NCBI GenBank assembly: GCA_037380845.1
Contig: JARRRI010000062.1
Span: 14,371 to 32,400 of the forward strand
DNA: 18,030 nucleotides
Reading direction: 5' to 3'
DNA from: Candidatus Sulfobium sp.
Lineage (GTDB): Bacteria; Nitrospirota; Thermodesulfovibrionia; Thermodesulfovibrionales; UBA6898
This document shows positions 2,100 to 18,030 of this stretch, piece after piece. Made by a program: the position numbers and the translations under genes. Under the pieces are notes generated by a model. It searched no databases and was not told where the DNA came from. It was given only the letters and a program-made list of their open reading frames with translations. Numbering within the stretch: position 1 is the first letter of the stretch; each line of letters begins with the position of its first letter.

Positions 2100-4184
2100 A
2101 TGGAAAAGACGGAATCGACGGCCGCGGTTTTACTGGAGATAGGTACCGAAGAGATACCCTCCCGGTTCCTGCCCGGGGTCCTGTCGGATCTGAATAATCT
2201 CGCAGGGGGAGTCTTTGACGAATACCGCATCGCCTTTACAGATGTCAGCACGTTTGCTACCCCAAGAAGACTCTCGCTGATAGTAAAAGGCGTCGCAGCG
2301 CGGCAATCCGATGTAACAAAAGAAGTGTTCGGACCTTCAAAGAAGGCGGCATTCGACGAAAATGGACTGCCGACAAGGGCCGCTGAAGGTTTTGCCCGGT
2401 CTGTCGGAGTGAAGGCCTCCGGTCTTGTTATACGCAGCAAGGGCAAGGGCGAATATGTCGCGGCAGTAATAGAAGAGAAGGGTCTGGACACCGGGCTTCT
2501 CCTGCCGGAATTGCTGAAGAAAATCATTCTCTCTCTCCGCTTCCCCAAGTCGATGAGGTGGGGGGACGGCACCCTCTATTTCGCCCGGCCGATACACTGG
2601 ATACTGTCCGTGTTCGGTACGGAAACCGTCCGTTTCGATGTAGACGGCATAAAGAGCGGGAATATCACCCGCGGGCACCGGTTTCTCTCACCCGCCTCAT
2701 TCCAGGTGAAAGACGCTGTTTCTTATATGAACATCCTGGCCAATAATTACGTCATTCTCGATCAGGACAAGAGGAGAGATCTGATACAAAAAGGGATCGA
2801 CAGTCTCGCGGCCGCGGCAGGCGGGCTGCCCATTATCGATAATGAACTCCTGGACAGGGTGACTTTCCTTGTCGAGTTTCCGGTCCCGGTCCTGTGTGGA
2901 TTCAGTACCGAATATCTTAAACTGCCGAAGGAGCTTCTGATAACAGTAATGAGGGACCATCAGAAATACTTCGCCGTGCACGACGACGAGGGGAACCTCG
3001 TTAACAGCTTTGTTGTGGTGAGCAATACCAGGGCCGACAACGCGGAAACGGTCAGGACAGGAGCGGAACGGGTTATCAGGGCACGCTTCGACGACGCGAA
3101 GTTCTATTTTCATGAGGATAGAAAGAGGCCTCTCTCCGGGAGAGTGGAAGAACTGAAGCAGGTGACCTTTCATGACAGGCTGGGTAGTCTTTTTGAAAAG
3201 ACCGGCAGGGTGACCGCGATAGCCGCGTTTCTCTCCGCAAAGATTGGACCTTCTCTGAAAGATAGTCTCGAAAGGGCCTCACTCCTTTCAAAAACGGACC
3301 TTTTAACCGGAGTAGTAAGGGAGTTCCCCGAACTTCAGGGCATTATGGGTAAATATTATGCCCTGCATGACAGGGAAGATGAGGAGGTCGCCGCCGCACT
3401 GGAAGAACAATATCTGCCCGGTTCCTTCGGCGGCAAGATGCCCGAGACGGAACTGGGTGCCTTTCTCAGTCTCTCCGATAAAGCAGACAATATTGCCTCT
3501 TTTTTTGCCATAGGACTCGTGCCGTCAGGTTCCGAAGATCCCTTCGCCCTCAGAAGACAGGCACTGGGCATAGTATCGATATTGCTTGAAAAGGGGTACC
3601 CTCTTTCTCTCCGCGAGATGTTTGCCGATGCGCTGACACACCTGGGGCATCGGGGAAGTGAAAAGGACCCTCTGGAAAGCATTATCGGGTTCATGGAACA
3701 GAGGATAGAATTCGTCTTCTCTTCAAAAGGAAATGCACAAGACGTTATAAAGTCGGTTCTTTATCTTTCTTCGATCCTTCCGTTGAAGAACGTCTCAGAA
3801 AGGATAGATGCACTGAAAAGCTTCAAGGAAGACCCGCAATTCCCCGATTTCCTGCTGGCCGTCAAAAGGATACACAATATCGTCCCAAAGGGGAAAGTAC
3901 TGCCGCCGGTAAGAGAAGAACTTTTCGTGCAGGATGAAGAAAAGGATCTTTTTGCCGCTTTATTGGCAGCCAAAGCTGAGGTCTCTTCACTCATGGCCGG
4001 GGAGAGGTTTTCCGACGCACTCAAACGCCTCTCCGAGATCACAGCGCAGGTTAATTCTTTTTTTGACAAGGTTCTGGTAATGGACAAGGAAGAAAAGACA
4101 AAGGAGAACAGACTTTCCCTTCTGAAGGAATTATGGGATACCGCCTATTCGTTGGCGGATTTTTCCAAACTTCTGCAGTTATAA
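2100..4184 (+). CDS. glyS: Glycine--tRNA ligase beta subunit
   Basis: Motifs LLEIGTEEIP, FATPRRL, FPKSMRWG, EFPELQGIMG and PSGSEDPFALRR. ATG 2100 follows the glyQ stop by 2 nt. Confidence 0.97.
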   Translation: MEKTESTAAVLLEIGTEEIPSRFLPGVLSDLNNLAGGVFDEYRIAFTDVSTFATPRRLSLIVKGVAARQSDVTKEVFGPSKKAAFDENGLPTRAAEGFARSVGVKASGLVIRSKGKGEYVAAVIEEKGLDTGLLLPELLKKIILSLRFPKSMRWGDGTLYFARPIHWILSVFGTETVRFDVDGIKSGNITRGHRFLSPASFQVKDAVSYMNILANNYVILDQDKRRDLIQKGIDSLAAAAGGLPIIDNELLDRVTFLVEFPVPVLCGFSTEYLKLPKELLITVMRDHQKYFAVHDDEGNLVNSFVVVSNTRADNAETVRTGAERVIRARFDDAKFYFHEDRKRPLSGRVEELKQVTFHDRLGSLFEKTGRVTAIAAFLSAKIGPSLKDSLERASLLSKTDLLTGVVREFPELQGIMGKYYALHDREDEEVAAALEEQYLPGSFGGKMPETELGAFLSLSDKADNIASFFAIGLVPSGSEDPFALRRQALGIVSILLEKGYPLSLREMFADALTHLGHRGSEKDPLESIIGFMEQRIEFVFSSKGNAQDVIKSVLYLSSILPLKNVSERIDALKSFKEDPQFPDFLLAVKRIHNIVPKGKVLPPVREELFVQDEEKDLFAALLAAKAEVSSLMAGERFSDALKRLSEITAQVNSFFDKVLVMDKEEKTKENRLSLLKELWDTAYSLADFSKLLQL

Positions 4185-4229: not shown

Positions 4230-5438
4230 ATGGATAAAATCGTAAGCAGCCTCCTTCAGAAAAATAAAACAAAAATTGTCCTTGTCGTCCTTGACGGTCT
4301 GGGAGGTCTTCCCGTTAGCGGTAAGACCGAACTCGAGGCCGCGAACACTCCTTCCATGGATGCGGTTGCTAAAACCGCCGCATGCGGTCTTCACATACCT
4401 GTGGAGCCGGGCATCACCCCCGGGAGTGGACCCGGCCATCTCGCCCTTTTCGGTTATGATCCCAAAGAATGCCAGATCGGCAGGGGGATTCTGGAGGTGC
4501 TGGGACTGGGGCTTGAAGTAAAAAAGACGGACGTTGCGGTGAGGTGCAACTATGCGACGGTTCGGGAAGGAGTTGTTACTGACAGAAGGGCGGGTAGAAT
4601 ACCGACCGATCACAGTCGCAGACTCACGGAAAAACTCCGGTCGGGGATCGGAAAGATAGACGAGGCCGAGGTTATCTTCGCCCCCGGCATGGAGCACAGG
4701 TTCGCCGTGCTTTTGCGGTTCCCCGAGCCCCTTGAACCGGACGCCGCCATGATCTCCGACACCGACCCGCAGAAAGAAGGGCAGCGGCCGCTCTACCCGA
4801 CCCCACTGGCAAAAAATGCCGAAAGGGTGTCGAGGATCGTCGAGAAGCTTATCAATTCCATTCATGAGATATTGAAGGATGAAACAAACGCGAACTATGC
4901 CTTGATGCGGGGCTTTTCAAAGATGCCCCACATACCGACTTTCCAGGATGCCTTCGGGCTCAATGCCCTTGCCATAGCGACTTACCCGATGTATCGGGGC
5001 CTTGCGCGGCTGGTCGAGATGGACACGCCGGCCATAGAAGGGACCGTCCAGGATGAGGTTGATTTCCTGAAAAGCAAATATAACCATTACGATTTCTTTT
5101 TCCTCCACGTGAAGAAGGTCGACTCCTATGGGGAAGACGGTAATTTTCCGGAAAAGTGCCGCAGGATAGAAGAGTTCGACGCCCTTCTGCCCCAGATACT
5201 GGAACTCAAACCGGATGTTCTCATCATCACTGGGGACCATTCGACACCGGCGGTGCTCAAAGGCCACAGCTGGCATCCGGTGCCCGTGCTCCTTCGATCC
5301 CCATACGTGCTTGGCGGGCTTTGTGAGGGCTTCTCGGAAAGGGAATGCACAAAAGGCGAACTCGGGATATTCCGCACCATCCACCTTATGCCGCTCGCCC
5401 TCGCCAACGCAGGCAGACTCAAAAAATTCGGTGCGTAA
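4230..5438 (+). CDS. apgM: 2,3-bisphosphoglycerate-independent phosphoglycerate mutase (ApgM/archaeal type)
   Basis: Metalloenzyme motifs VLDGLGG, TPGSGPGHLALFGYDP, TGDHSTP and HSWHPVP. Confidence 0.93.
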   Translation: MDKIVSSLLQKNKTKIVLVVLDGLGGLPVSGKTELEAANTPSMDAVAKTAACGLHIPVEPGITPGSGPGHLALFGYDPKECQIGRGILEVLGLGLEVKKTDVAVRCNYATVREGVVTDRRAGRIPTDHSRRLTEKLRSGIGKIDEAEVIFAPGMEHRFAVLLRFPEPLEPDAAMISDTDPQKEGQRPLYPTPLAKNAERVSRIVEKLINSIHEILKDETNANYALMRGFSKMPHIPTFQDAFGLNALAIATYPMYRGLARLVEMDTPAIEGTVQDEVDFLKSKYNHYDFFFLHVKKVDSYGEDGNFPEKCRRIEEFDALLPQILELKPDVLIITGDHSTPAVLKGHSWHPVPVLLRSPYVLGGLCEGFSERECTKGELGIFRTIHLMPLALANAGRLKKFGA

Positions 5439-6888
5439 GGCCCATATCGAAGTGAACGACCCGGACCGGAAACTGGTAGAAGCGTCCAGTGGCACAGCCG
5501 GTACAACGCCCCTCCGCCGGGTAGCCCATCTGGTAGACACCCACTGTCATCTCGACATGAGGGAATTCGACCCGGACAGGGATGAAGTGATCAGGCGGGC
5601 GCGGGACGCCGGATTTGAGGCACTCGTTACCGTAGGCTCCGACCTCCACGGGACCGTAAAGGGGATGGAACTCTCCCGACAGTACGATTTCGTCTTCGCC
5701 TCAATCGGTATACATCCCCACGACGCGAAGGATTTCAGAAAAGAAATCCTTCTGCGTCTCAAGGACTGGTCAACAGAGAAAAAGGTCGTGGCCATAGGGG
5801 AAACCGGAATCGACTACCATTACGACCATTCACCCCGCGAGGTGCAGCGGAAGGTCTTCAGGAAGCACCTGGAGCTTGCGGGCGAAAGCGGCCTGCCTGT
5901 CATAATTCACAGCCGGGAGGCTGAAGACGACACCATGGAGATACTCAGGGAATCGGGGATTGTTAACGGAGTGCTTCACTGTTTTTCAGGCGACATGGAA
6001 ATGGCGGAAGAAGCGATGTCCATGGGACTCTTCATCTCACTGGCCGGTCCTGTAACCTTCAAGAAGTCTACGCAGCTGAAGGAGATAGCGGGGATAATAC
6101 CTGACGACTACCTCCTGGTCGAGACTGACGCTCCCTATTTGACTCCCGAGCCGTTCCGGGGAAAGCGCAACGAGCCCGCATTTATGCAGCACACAGTAAA
6201 ACTGATAGCAGAATTGCGGGGCGTGAGCTACGAGGACCTGGCGCGCATCACTACCCTCAACGCCCGTCGTCTCTTCCGGATAGGCTCCGTCCCGGAAAAG
6301 GCTGAAATCGCCTATCAGATCCGTGACAGCCTGTATCTCAATATAACCAACAGGTGCACCAATACCTGCTCCTTCTGCGTCAAGTTCCGCTCCGATTTTG
6401 TGAAGGGGCATAAACTAAGGCTGATGCATGAGCCCGAAGAAGAAGAAATAAAGCGCGAAATCGGAGACCCTTCAGCCTACAGGGAGATCGTGTTCTGCGG
6501 TTACGGAGAACCTCTCCTGAGGATCGAGACCGTAAAGCAGATAGCCAAATGGGTCAAGGACAATAATGGAAAGGTCAGGATCAACACCAACGGCCATGCC
6601 AATCTCATCCATAAGAGGGACGTGGTCCCTGAACTGAAAGGCATTGTGGACAGCATTTCGATCAGTCTCGACGCCCAGGACGAAGAGACCTATAACAGGC
6701 TGTGCAAGCCGGCTTTCAGCAACGCTTATGCCGAAGTCCTCCGGTTTGTTAAACGCTCAACCGAGATAATCCCCGACGTGCAGGTAACGGTAGTAGAACT
6801 GCCCGGAGTCGACGTGGAAAAATGCAAGCGGATAGCCGGCGAACTGGGTGCCCATTTCAGGCTTCGCAAGTACGACGTGGTAGGCTGA
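5431..6888 (+). CDS. TatD-family nuclease fused to a C-terminal TatD-associated radical SAM domain (start uncertain, 5431-5530)
   Basis: TatD motifs VDTHCHLD, GIHPH, AIGETGIDY, IIHSR, GVLHCFSG and VETDAPYLTP. Then YLNITNRCTNTCSFC (CxxxCxxC), VFCGYGEP and RINTNG. An in-frame GTG at 5431 overlaps the apgM 3' end. Confidence 0.92.
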   Translation: MRKAHIEVNDPDRKLVEASSGTAGTTPLRRVAHLVDTHCHLDMREFDPDRDEVIRRARDAGFEALVTVGSDLHGTVKGMELSRQYDFVFASIGIHPHDAKDFRKEILLRLKDWSTEKKVVAIGETGIDYHYDHSPREVQRKVFRKHLELAGESGLPVIIHSREAEDDTMEILRESGIVNGVLHCFSGDMEMAEEAMSMGLFISLAGPVTFKKSTQLKEIAGIIPDDYLLVETDAPYLTPEPFRGKRNEPAFMQHTVKLIAELRGVSYEDLARITTLNARRLFRIGSVPEKAEIAYQIRDSLYLNITNRCTNTCSFCVKFRSDFVKGHKLRLMHEPEEEEIKREIGDPSAYREIVFCGYGEPLLRIETVKQIAKWVKDNNGKVRINTNGHANLIHKRDVVPELKGIVDSISISLDAQDEETYNRLCKPAFSNAYAEVLRFVKRSTEIIPDVQVTVVELPGVDVEKCKRIAGELGAHFRLRKYDVVG

Positions 6889-13028: not shown

Positions 13029-13097
13029 TTCAGATGTCCTCCGCAGCCAAACTACCGATGCTTCCCGATTATGTCGGCAGAATGGTACAATTTCCCA

Positions 13098-13544
13098 ATG
13101 AAGATCATCACTCAAAACAAGAAGGCATTCCATGATTATTCCATCGAAGAGACTCTGGAGGCCGGCATCCTGCTTCAGGGCACCGAGGTGAAATCACTCC
13201 GTGAAGGAAAGGCCAACCTCAGGGACAGTTATGTCATCGTTAAGGATGGAGAGGTCTTTCTCCTGAATTGCCATATCAGTCCCTATTCACACGGAAATAT
13301 CATGAACCACGACCCCCTGAGGACGAGGAAGCTCCTCCTGCACAGAAGGGAGATCACGAAGCTCCAGGGCAAAGCGGCGCAAAAAGGATATTCGCTTATT
13401 CCACTGAAGCTTTACTTCAAGAACTCTCATGTAAAGGTTGAGGTCGGACTGGCCAGAGGGAAGAAACAATATGAAAAAAGAGAGACCATCAAGAAAAGGG
13501 AGGCTGACCGGGAAATAGAGCGCGCTATGAAATCCCGGCGCTGA
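13098..13544 (+). CDS. smpB: SsrA-binding protein
   Basis: [31 protein letters not shown] and GKKQYEKRE motifs. Directly upstream of tmRNA. Confidence 0.98.
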
Positions 13545-13584: not shown

Positions 13585-13932
13585 GGGGGCGAATGGGCTC
13601 GACGGGGGTTATGAGGCTTATGTGGCATGTCGTGGCTCCATCACCACGTTAAAAGATGGAAACAAACACAAACGCCAACAACGAACTGGCACTCGCTGCT
13701 TAACTAGAAGCAGCTCGCTGCTCCGGGATTGTCTGCGTTCCGGGGATAGCGACAATCAGCAGGCTGGCTGCCGGGGACTTCTCCCGATCCGGCGGCGAGA
13801 CAAGGGGAGATGGGAATCCCGGAAGCCTGGTTGCCGGCGTCCCGGATTCCGAGATCTAAAAGACAGCCTACACATGTAGAAGCATAAGTGTAGTACCTTC
13901 GGACGCGGGTTCGATTCCCGCCGCCTCCACCA
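13585..13932 (+). ncRNA. ssrA: tmRNA, tag (A)ANNELALAA
   Basis: 5' GGGGGCG pairs with 3' CGCCTCC-ACCA, including G3:U70. T arm GCGGG-TTCGATT-CCCGC. Tag ORF at 13674-13703 reads GCC AAC AAC GAA CTG GCA CTC GCT GCT TAA. Confidence 0.97.
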
Positions 13933-16481: not shown

Positions 16482-16607
16482 GTGATCGCCCGTTTTATGC
16501 CGGGGCTTTTTAAAGCCGGGTTTGGTTGAGAATGTTCGTCAAAAGCCTGGTCGAGGTTTTCCGGCGTGGAGTTCGGCGGTCATTGCGGTTCACGCTCCGA
16601 AGAGTAG
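16482..16607 (+). CDS. Putative 41-aa selenocysteine-containing leader peptide MIARFMPGLFKAGFG-U-ECSSKAWSRFSGVEFGGHCGSRSEE (15 aa if UGA terminates)
   Basis: SD AAAGGAGGTG (16467-16476), GTG at 16482, in-frame TGA at 16527-16529 followed by a SECIS-like hairpin, TAG at 16605-16607. Confidence 0.6.
16537..16566 (+). promoter_or_regulatory. Bacterial SECIS-like hairpin
   Basis: Upper stem AAAGCCT (16542-16548) / AGGTTTT (16554-16560). Loop GGTCG begins 19 nt after the UGA. Lower stem CGTC/GGCG. Resembles the E. coli fdhF SECIS in its GGUC loop and spacing. Confidence 0.6.
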
Positions 16608-16783
16608 CACTTAGTCCGCCTAAGTAGATCGAGCCAACCCTCCAATAAAAACTCCATAAGGAAAAAGATTTTCTAACCTCCATAGCTGTCTCAGGCAATA
16701 ATTGTCCGCTAATCATGCTGAAATTTCCGGAGATGCATGGGCACCTGGAACTGCCCTGTATGCTTTAGAAGAATGAACCCAGA

Positions 16784-16877
16784 GGGGGATAAGGGGCTGG
16801 TGCCCCACCTGGTCTGCAAAACTGTGCTCGCGCCCTGAGGGGGTTGCGGTGGGTTCGATTCCCACTATCCTCCTCCA
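16784..16877 (+). tRNA. tRNA-Sec-like tRNA with Cys identity (selC*-type tRNA-Cys, anticodon GCA)
   Basis: Acceptor GGGGGATA/TATCCTCC (8 bp), U73 and encoded CCA. D arm GGGGC-TGGT-GCCCC. Anticodon loop CT-GCA-AA (16814-16820). Long variable arm at 16829-16848. T arm GTGGG-TTCGATT-CCCAC. Total 94 nt. Confidence 0.88.
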
Positions 16878-16901
16878 AAAAAGTGAAAGGAGACTCAAAA
16901 A

Positions 16902-17507
16902 ATGATAATTGACGCAAGGGGTCTTGGATGCCCTAAGCCGGTCTTGTTGGCGGAGGAAGCCCTCGCCGGGATAAAGGACGGTATAGTGGAAGTGCTGGTG
17001 GATGATGAAGGTTCATCGGAAAATGTCTTGACATTCGCTCAAAGTGCCGGCTGTTATGGCGAAGTTTCCAGAGAAGGTCGGGACTTCCGGGTCAAAATTG
17101 TGAAGGGATATACTTGCCGGCCTGCCAATACAATATCGGAAAAGAAAAGGGAGGAGGTCATAAATTCAAGGAAGGACATACTTATGGTGGTGGCTACTGA
17201 TCAGTTGGGCAAAGAGGAGGAGCTTGGCCGGATACTCATCAAAGGATTTTTTGAAACAATGACAGTAACGAAAGAAATTCCGCACACGATTTTCTTTCTC
17301 AATACAGGGGTGAAACTTACGACCCTTAATGAGGAACTGATAACCGTGCTGAATAAGATCGAGCAGATGGGGGCAGAGATCTTTTCGTGCGGCACCTGTC
17401 TCAAATATTACGGGCTTGAATCGAGCCTCAAGGTCGGTTACCGAGGGACAACCAACAACATCCTTGAGGGCATGGCTGACAGAATGAAAACCGTGTGGAT
17501 AGGCTAG
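16902..17507 (+). CDS. yedF: Sulfurtransferase-like selenium metabolism protein YedF (TusA/SirA plus DsrE-like domains)
   Basis: N-terminal IDARGLGCPKP (CPxP). C-terminal DQLG..ELGRIL, FFLNTGVKLT and SCGTCL. SD GAAAGGAG; starts 24 nt after the tRNA CCA. Confidence 0.88.
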   Translation: MIIDARGLGCPKPVLLAEEALAGIKDGIVEVLVDDEGSSENVLTFAQSAGCYGEVSREGRDFRVKIVKGYTCRPANTISEKKREEVINSRKDILMVVATDQLGKEEELGRILIKGFFETMTVTKEIPHTIFFLNTGVKLTTLNEELITVLNKIEQMGAEIFSCGTCLKYYGLESSLKVGYRGTTNNILEGMADRMKTVWIG

Positions 17508-17702
17508 CTGACCTCAAATCGATAAGAACGTTCAGAAAGAACTCCCTCCCTGGGGTCGGAACAAGGCAACTATTTCAAATTACGCAAAAGGAGCGGGGAA
17601 ATAGGGCTTCTTTTGGCCTTGGAAGCAATAGTCAAGAATTATCTTTGCGGCACTTGCAGACGCTTTTGTCGACTTCTTCCTGAAGCCCTCATTTCTGAAA
17701 CC

Positions 17703-17766: not shown

Positions 17767-18030
17767 ATGAGAACACTAAAGATGTACGGCGGGATAGTCT
17801 TGGCGATCATCTTGCTCCTTGTCGGCATCGTCTTCTTGAAGGACCCCTACTCGGCCGGTCAATTCGTTTCCAACTATTTCGCCGTGGGAGACTTTGCGCG
17901 AGGCGTTTTTTCGGCAGGCCAATTTTCGGCGGGCATATTTGCCGCCGGCACCTTCGCGATCGGGGTGTTCTCCGCCGGGATTTTTTCTGTTGGCGTATTC
18001 TCCATTGGAGTGTTTTCGTTTGGGCTGTGC
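17767..18030 (+). CDS. Membrane protein with G-x-F-[SA]-x pentapeptide repeats (partial, runs off the window)
   Basis: Manual translation: MRTLKMYGGIVLAIILLLVGIVFLKDPYSAGQFVSNYFAVGDFARGVFSAGQFSAGIFAAGTFAIGVFSAGIFSVGVFSIGVFSFGLC. SD GGGAGG. Confidence 0.8.
   Translation, partial: MRTLKMYGGIVLAIILLLVGIVFLKDPYSAGQFVSNYFAVGDFARGVFSAGQFSAGIFAAGTFAIGVFSAGIFSVGVFSIGVFSFGLC

Follow-up and report, generated by a model that had tools for sequence, protein, structure and literature searches.

Does a tRNA with the body of a selenocysteine tRNA and the identity marks of a cysteine tRNA serve translation, and, if so, which amino acid does it bring to which codon? The question is raised by a gene at positions 16784–16877 of the window, by which we mean the whole stretch of 18,030 nucleotides of Candidatus Sulfobium sp. 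that was analysed. tRNAs of this kind are called selC*-type tRNA-Cys, a rare class that was reportedly renamed tRNAReC by Vargas-Rodriguez et al. in 2018 (RNA Biol 15:471). The parts of the gene, and the gene that follows it, are listed here with the evidence for each.

16784–16877, plus strand: tRNA-Cys(GCA), selC*-type (tRNAReC), 94 nt including the encoded CCA (ARAGORN, RF01852 and our covariance model R1)
16784–16791, plus strand: 5' strand of the acceptor stem, 8 nt, partner of 16866–16873 (ARAGORN drawing, covariation)
16793–16806, plus strand: D arm, 5-bp stem and 4-nt loop UGGU (sequence, ARAGORN, alignment)
16808–16826, plus strand: anticodon arm with GCA at 16816–16818, the stem weakened by G:U, U:G and C26xU42
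16827–16848, plus strand: variable arm, 22 nt, stem-loop (folding, ARAGORN, covariation)
16849–16865, plus strand: T arm, 5-bp stem and loop UUCGAUU (ARAGORN, 100% of family cells paired)
16866–16873, plus strand: 3' strand of the acceptor stem (ARAGORN, covariation)
16874–16877, plus strand: discriminator U73 (16874), then the encoded CCA (16875–16877) (sequence)
16902–17507, plus strand: yedF, TusA-like and DsrE-like selenium-metabolism protein (TIGR03527, 191.8 bits, cut-off 110)

ARAGORN identifies the gene as a tRNA-Cys(GCA) of 94 nt with boundaries at exactly 16784–16877 on the plus strand. RF01852, the Rfam model of tRNA-Sec, matches 16784–16873 at 47.3 bits (gathering score 47), and in Rfam this match is retained over that of the general tRNA model, which belongs to the same clan. 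The cloverleaf drawn by ARAGORN has an acceptor stem of 8 bp (1–8/83–90, with one G:U and G1:C72 as the first pair), a single linker base, A9, between the acceptor and D stems, a 5-bp D stem (10–14/19–23) closed by the loop UGGU, and an anticodon stem at 25–30/38–43 with the loop CUGCAAA. Single-sequence folding likewise turns the variable arm into a stem-loop. Much of this had been described in an initial annotation made from the letters of the window. Its central observation, a selenocysteine-tRNA architecture combined with GCA and U73, is confirmed by the sequence, ARAGORN and the RF01852 match; the 8/5 fold with a 1-nt linker and a 5-bp D stem is borne out by the ARAGORN drawing and, for 8/5, by covariation in the family; and the weak anticodon stem with two G:U pairs and one C-U mismatch is real (G28:U40, U27:G41 and C26xU42). 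The single-sequence fold energy is unremarkable (z = -1.55) and carries no signal alone; thus, the case for the tRNA rests on comparison with relatives.

BLAST of the genomes of 60 relatives, followed by a parser, yielded 27 homologous tRNAs of 93–127 nt. All 27 have the anticodon GCA, and all end in U-CCA except one, for which the parse is shifted by an inserted base. Twenty-five family members, including the window copy, were aligned and used for the covariation analysis and for the covariance model R1. In this alignment 95.7% of the cells are paired and 13 pairs are altered on both sides; none of 500 shuffles was as high, and slid controls reached 48–69% paired. All eight acceptor pairs are kept, the eighth being A-U in 22 of the 25 sequences and G-C in two, and the T stem has 5 bp with 100% of its cells paired. 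Since the eighth acceptor pair covaries and the T stem is always 5 bp, the branch is 8/5, with 13 bp, as in bacterial tRNA-Sec. The fifth pair of the D stem (C-G or U-G) is found in 19/25 sequences and a sixth (9/24) in 14/25, the latter being absent from the window copy, which has A/A. All five basal pairs of the variable arm show changes on both sides. The anticodon stem of the family has 5 bp, with a sixth pair in just 5/25 sequences, which sets the family apart from tRNA-Sec, and the anticodon loop CUGCAAA is invariant (25/25).

R1 recovered 30 matches, of 72.7–111 bits, in 29 of 61 genomes, including that of the window. True selC genes score 51–63.5 bits under the same model and are cleanly separated from the selC*-type class; the window copy has 84.5 bits versus 57.2 for the true selC of the same genome. 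A selC*-type tRNA is present in 28 of the 60 relatives, namely in 15/36 of the same family and 13/24 from other families of the order; among 150 sampled genomes of the phylum, further matches come from one additional order and one additional class. One relative (G028) has two copies, C5:168864–168957 and C14:72111–72204, with a double-cubane reductase gene after one of them and yedF after the other.

Judged by its sequence, the window tRNA is a member of the selC* tRNA-Cys, or tRNAReC, class and bears every mark that could be tested: a Sec-like body, cysteine identity elements, coexistence with selC, selA, selB and selD, and homology to published members. Mukai et al. 2017 (NAR 45:2776, PMC5389517) describe selC* tRNA-Cys as tRNA-Sec-like, with U73 and either GCA or UCA, from anaerobes including Thermodesulfovibrio; according to them the Sec apparatus is complete in every carrier genome, and suppression of the selD opal codon is reported for a UCA-type member. 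The initial annotation was right to place the tRNA in this class; the gene is homologous to the selC* tRNAs of Thermodesulfovibrio that the study tabulates in its sheet 'selC-like tRNAsCys'. Like the selC* tRNAs reported there for Thermodesulfovibrio islandicus, yellowstonii and thiophilus (PMC5389517), it has GCA, U73, an encoded CCA, the T arm and an 8-bp acceptor stem. With these tRNAs, which come from the same phylum-level lineage, it also shares the anticodon-arm core CCUGGU-CUGCAAA-ACCAG, whereas its variable arm is different and its anticodon stem is weakened. Two of the tRNAs in our set, L040 and L044, agree by eye with the sheet's Thermodesulfovibrio entries except in the variable arm and at two D-stem positions, and both align with the window tRNA. 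The fold had been given in the initial annotation as generally 8/4 for the class. This does not hold: the main text of Mukai et al. (PMC5389517) gives 8/4 for certain delta-proteobacteria only, and the family studied here is 8/5 by covariation.

Comparison with other systems delimits the tRNA further. Desulfotomaculum nigrificans, a member of Clostridia and hence of a different phylum, also has a Sec-like tRNA-Cys with GCA beside selC and selB, and this tRNA is reported to be charged with Cys. The selC*-selB*-cysS* cassette of Desulfobacterales and Syntrophobacterales likewise encodes a Sec-like tRNA-Cys, and a second CysRS-like gene lacking an anticodon-binding domain is present in the window's genome as well. 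In that cassette, however, the tRNA is described as 8/4 with a bulge, with UCA and A1:U72 in the cysS* group (PMC5389517), as opposed to 8/5, GCA and G1:C72 here; the Desulfobacterales cassette has a selB paralogue directly downstream, whereas the window has yedF in this place, no selB*, and the CysRS paralogue on another contig. Allo-tRNAs, which came out of the same Sec-like search, have a long variable arm in common with the window tRNA, but their branch has 12 bp (8/4 or 9/3) and their identity is of the serine type (PMC5389517), compared to 13 bp (8/5) and cysteine identity in the window. With bacterial tRNA-Sec, the window tRNA shares the 8/5 branch, the long variable arm and the small D loop, and its T arm is identical to that of the genome's own selC. 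The two differ in anticodon and discriminator (UCA and G73 in tRNA-Sec, GCA and U73 in the window) and in the RF01852 score, which is 73 bits for the genome's selC against 47.3. Canonical tRNA-Cys is 7/5 with a short variable region and a normal D loop, unlike the window tRNA with its 8/5 branch, 22-nt arm and 4-nt D loop. The window tRNA is therefore neither a tRNA-Sec, a canonical tRNA-Cys nor an allo-tRNA, and does not belong to the Desulfobacterales selC*-selB*-cysS* cassette.

The genome to which the window belongs (104 contigs, 3.18 Mb) encodes the partners of such a tRNA. True selC is found on contig C31 (UCA, G73, 98 nt, 73 bits with RF01852) and a canonical 76-nt tRNA-Cys(GCA) at C4:63444–63519. 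selA (620 bits) adjoins the single selB (331.6 bits). A truncated selB paralogue, which the initial annotation had suggested looking for, did not turn up: in a profile search of the genome this selB is the sole match of its class, the next-best match having 98 bits. selD has an in-frame TGA (G000:C20:72213–73058). In the order-level sample, 57 of 61 genomes have selD, with one in-frame TGA except in three partial pieces, so that selenophosphate synthetase is itself a selenoprotein here, with or without a selC* tRNA. The selC*-type class is dispensable, being present in 28/60 relatives versus selD in 57/61 genomes. A full-length housekeeping CysRS is encoded on G000:C34 (581 bits). The genome also has a second cysS-like gene, as the initial annotation had anticipated. 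It encodes a CysRS-like paralogue of 408 aa at G000:C22:35858–37081 (= L014:1492–2718, plus strand), unlinked to the tRNA, which reaches 293 bits with TIGR00435 (cut-off 340) and is 32% identical to the canonical enzyme. The paralogue has no DALR or anticodon-binding domain, while its HIGH-like and KMSKS motifs are kept. HIECS and HHENE of the canonical enzyme are replaced by NIQDP and HHDYT, respectively; we take these positions to be the zinc ligands of E. coli CysRS. Orthologues with 56–79% identity are present in 22 of the 60 relatives, yet the gene does not track the tRNA: 12 relatives have both, 10 the paralogue alone, 16 the tRNA alone and 22 neither, with one partial match being ambiguous. 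Because its gene is unlinked and its distribution is independent of that of the tRNA, we rejected this protein as a dedicated synthetase.

The role of such tRNAs is less open than was thought at the outset, given what has been published on homologues. The tRNA-Cys(GCA) of D. nigrificans is reported to decode UGA with Cys, to have no interaction with EF-Tu and to be delivered by SelB (JBC 2024 review, PMC11415595), and both GCA and UCA types are reported to recode UGA with a downstream SECIS (2026 paper, PMC13582414). The initial annotation had called the function unclear and supposed that a SelB-like factor may be needed; in these accounts ordinary SelB delivers the homologue and UGA is read as Cys, and the window's genome has one selB. 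Taken as a whole, the best explanation, and in our judgement a probable one, is that the window tRNA combines a tRNA-Sec body with cysteine identity, is charged by CysRS, delivered by SelB and used to insert Cys at UGA with a SECIS. This mechanism is borrowed from the homologue, and for the window copy it is suggested by the identity marks and by the partners in the genome. The housekeeping CysRS would charge the tRNA with cysteine, as U73 and GCA indicate. The 13-bp branch would bar EF-Tu and direct the tRNA to the single SelB, a step to which both the fold and the report on the homologue point. SelB would then carry the tRNA to a UGA with a SECIS, where Cys would replace Sec, as reported for D. 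nigrificans, and selenoprotein mRNAs, including that of selD with its in-frame TGA, could be translated while Sec-tRNA-Sec is short. In most relatives, expression of the tRNA would be driven by a promoter of its own with a LysR-type operator; in the window this control region is missing and the tRNA stands 24 nt before yedF. Reading of UGA by a GCA anticodon requires a G34-A mismatch, which counts against the proposal. So do the atypical nature of the window copy, with its low R1 score, the only mismatched anticodon stem, a different variable arm and no LysR gene or box, and the dispensability of the class.

GCA and U73 are cysteine marks, and the invariant loop CUGCAAA (25/25) fits codon reading, so that the tRNA could also be an extra, ordinary cysteine isoacceptor that is charged by CysRS, carried by EF-Tu and reads UGC and UGU anywhere. 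We consider this improbable. A canonical 76-nt tRNA-Cys(GCA) is encoded in the genome already; covariation maintains, order-wide, an 8/5 branch with a long variable arm and a small D loop, for which a tRNA carried by EF-Tu would have no use; and a homologue is reported not to interact with EF-Tu (PMC11415595).

We called 135 flanking ORFs at 29 loci of relatives (tRNA ± 4 kb) and scanned the nearest 84 against NCBIfam. Downstream of the tRNA are YedF in at least 8 of the 29 loci, split-Soret-cytochrome-like proteins in five, a double-cubane anaerobic reductase in three, and a TsuA/YedE-like transporter and a rhodanese-like protein in two each. At the two Thermodesulfovibrio-like loci, L078 and L079, the gene downstream encodes a prenyltransferase, unlike in the window, where yedF follows directly. 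The charged tRNA might have a role outside translation, as a carrier, donor or sensor of Cys or Sec for the neighbouring YedF, rhodanese or YedE/TsuA-like transporter, and the initial annotation had offered a carrier for YedF as one option. The adjacency of yedF here and in at least 8/29 loci of relatives fits such a role, as do the rhodanese-like, TsuA/YedE-like and double-cubane reductase genes at other loci and a selenium-associated LysR gene upstream in 17/29. Nevertheless, we regard it as quite unlikely. What lies downstream differs from locus to locus (YedF, cytochrome, reductase, transporter, prenyltransferase), so there is no single conserved partner, and with such different genes at other loci nothing ties the tRNA to YedF chemistry. 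The strict anticodon loop and the encoded CCA indicate ribosomal use, and translational activity is already reported for homologues (PMC13582414, PMC11415595). YedF as a selenoprotein recoded by the tRNA was also rejected: no in-frame TGA was seen in the yedF of loci L076 or L074. The CPxP motif of the L076 protein contains Cys, and the L074 product is limited to the C-terminal domain.

Several other features of the window were recorded. Upstream of the tRNA, smpB (13071–13544) is followed by the tmRNA gene ssrA (13585–13932, 202 bits), whose tag is ANNELALAA. The stretch of 2.8 kb from ssrA to the tRNA contains only ORFs without family matches, among them one of 102 aa with a hydrophobic N-terminal stretch and one of 196 aa. 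A genomic island extending from ssrA to the tRNA is not supported, with no att-like direct repeat and no composition step. A 557-aa ORF at 5215–6888 (plus strand), the start of which overlaps the preceding phosphoglycerate-mutase-like gene, combines matches to TatD DNase (residues 107–355) and radical SAM (375–540); it may be a fusion, or two genes merged by the ORF caller. The ORF at 17767–18030 (plus strand), open at the window end, has a hydrophobic N terminus followed by short glycine/phenylalanine-rich repeats, with a weak GLTT-repeat match below the cut-off.

A match to NF040786, the selenium metabolism-associated LysR family transcriptional regulator, is found among the two ORFs upstream of the tRNA at 17 of the relatives' 29 loci (263–326 bits, cut-off 250), on the strand of the tRNA in 16 of the 17. 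A perfect ATAG-N7-CTAT palindrome, the form of a LysR-type box, occurs within 334 nt upstream of the tRNA at 21/29 loci. By comparison, the remaining sequence of these loci, 202 kb in all, has 15 such hits, and the complete genome of the window (3.18 Mb) has 31. At several loci the box directly adjoins a TTGAC-like hexamer situated about 50 nt ahead of the tRNA. The same palindrome is absent within 334 nt upstream of selD at all 30 selD loci from the same genomes (L120–L149), and none precedes selD in the window's genome. The regions examined upstream of the tRNA are those of loci L062–L090; in L066, for example, the LysR gene lies at 2843–3730, and about 205 nt separate the box from the tRNA. 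Conservation of the operator and of the regulator gene before the tRNA suggests conditional expression.

The window departs from this arrangement. It has no LysR gene upstream of the tRNA and no ATAG-N7-CTAT box (the best match has two mismatches), and its upstream region has no similarity to the control region of its congeners. The window copy thus appears severed from the usual control region. The spacer between tRNA and yedF is 24 nt, against roughly 55–290 nt in relatives with yedF next, and no terminator-like site was found in it; the tRNA is probably co-transcribed with yedF on another transcript. The genome's own NF040786 regulator is encoded at C4:45944–46825 with rdgB as the next gene, and the 290-nt spacer between the two contains no remnant of a tRNA. 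A search for the LysR regulon of this genome through perfect boxes was a dead end: among 11 boxes examined in 10 regions, four are intergenic and none of the four is beside a selenium gene.

The tRNA itself departs from its family, too. Its R1 score of 84.5 bits is to be compared with 106 and 108 in its two congeners. Three changes have occurred in the 3' strand of the anticodon stem, of which two keep pairing as G:U. The mismatched stem is found in the window copy alone (1/25 sequences), the homologous columns 28/44 being C-G in 24/25. The variable arm also differs from that of the family, while all invariant family positions are retained in the alignment. We compared these positions with contigs from four public marsh-metagenome runs over 16500–17600 (1101 nt). 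Three of the four runs cover the tRNA; they possibly come from one campaign, or even from the source of the assembly, and do not count as independent. Their contigs differ from the window at only two of the 1101 positions, both within the tRNA: 16809 C>A, which turns C26xU42 into an A26-U42 pair, and 16836 T>A, located in the variable-arm loop. The fourth run has no contig across 16796–16943. Anticodon GCA and U73 are unchanged in the contigs of the three covering runs, so that TCA and G73, which according to the initial annotation raw reads might reveal, were not seen. The window tRNA sequence is not an assembly slip. A stem change that restores pairing is the behaviour of a working RNA, which points to a compensatory change segregating in the population.

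These data bear on whether the window gene is a pseudo-tRNA, that is, a decaying copy severed from its LysR-controlled promoter and left to drift. The lack of an upstream LysR gene and of the operator box that is present at 21/29 loci of relatives would fit decay, and so would the three changes on the 3' side of the anticodon stem, the replaced variable arm and the lower R1 score. Yet every invariant position of the family is kept, two of the three stem changes pair as G:U and the third is compensated (A26-U42) in three runs, the other population difference falls in a loop, the variable arm is still a stem-loop, and linkage to yedF is kept. On balance, we think it very doubtful that the gene is a pseudo-tRNA. 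Hardly credible is a tRNA-Sec with a sense anticodon, charged by SerRS with serine that SelA converts to Sec, and inserting Sec at selected UGC codons. The body is tRNA-Sec-like with a long variable arm, and a tRNA-Sec with GCA is reported from Aeromonas salmonicida (PMC11415595). However, both the window copy and those of the relatives have U as discriminator, unlike the true selC of the window's genome, which has G, and the class is reported as a CysRS substrate (PMC5389517, PMC11415595).

Returning to insertion of Cys at UGA by a SelB-delivered tRNA, the control region allows a tentative extension. It is possible, if somewhat short of probable, that the tRNAReC of Thermodesulfovibrionales-type bacteria is a regulated switch rather than constitutive, with its own promoter overlapping a LysR-type operator (ATAG-N7-CTAT) and with the gene of the selenium-associated LysR regulator usually just ahead of it. 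Cys-at-UGA would be toggled by selenium supply, together with the downstream selenium or sulfur gene (yedF, rhodanese, TsuA/YedE-like transporter or double-cubane reductase), and the window genome would be an uncoupled variant. The link to selenium sensing is suggested solely by the family name of the regulator. In such a scheme, the window genome would have its regulator on C4, would have lost the operator, would have its tRNA fused to yedF and would be caught with its anticodon stem in mid-compensation. The LysR gene and operator before the tRNA across the order may be new, unless already present in earlier tRNAReC work; yedF, LysR, SirA, TusA and DsrE are absent from the spreadsheet text of the Mukai 2017 supplement (PMC5389517).

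Some relatives also have selC*-type genes for a much longer tRNA-Cys, 127 to 146 nt in length (L114:1501–1646, L115, L112:1501–1632 on the minus strand, L116, L118, L037 and L047), in which the variable arm is a helix of about 50–72 nt. For the tRNA of L114, folding gives a cloverleaf in which the variable arm is a single long helix (MFE -64.4 kcal/mol, z = -4.4). Between two congeners with such tRNAs, the difference, judged by eye, completes a 6-bp stretch in the variable-arm helix. The Rfam match of the long-arm tRNAs is tRNA-Sec, at 44–55 bits. Such very long variable arms may be new, with the same reservation about earlier tRNAReC work, and they show the extent of variable-arm growth in a tRNA thought to be carried by SelB.

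For the class, known since 2017, the window tRNA adds one more genome and matters chiefly for annotation: automatic pipelines label such a tRNA as tRNA-Cys or tRNA-Sec. In carrier genomes, UGA codons of predicted selenoproteins may be partly read as cysteine. The question of when the cell uses tRNAReC could become directly testable through the comparative results.
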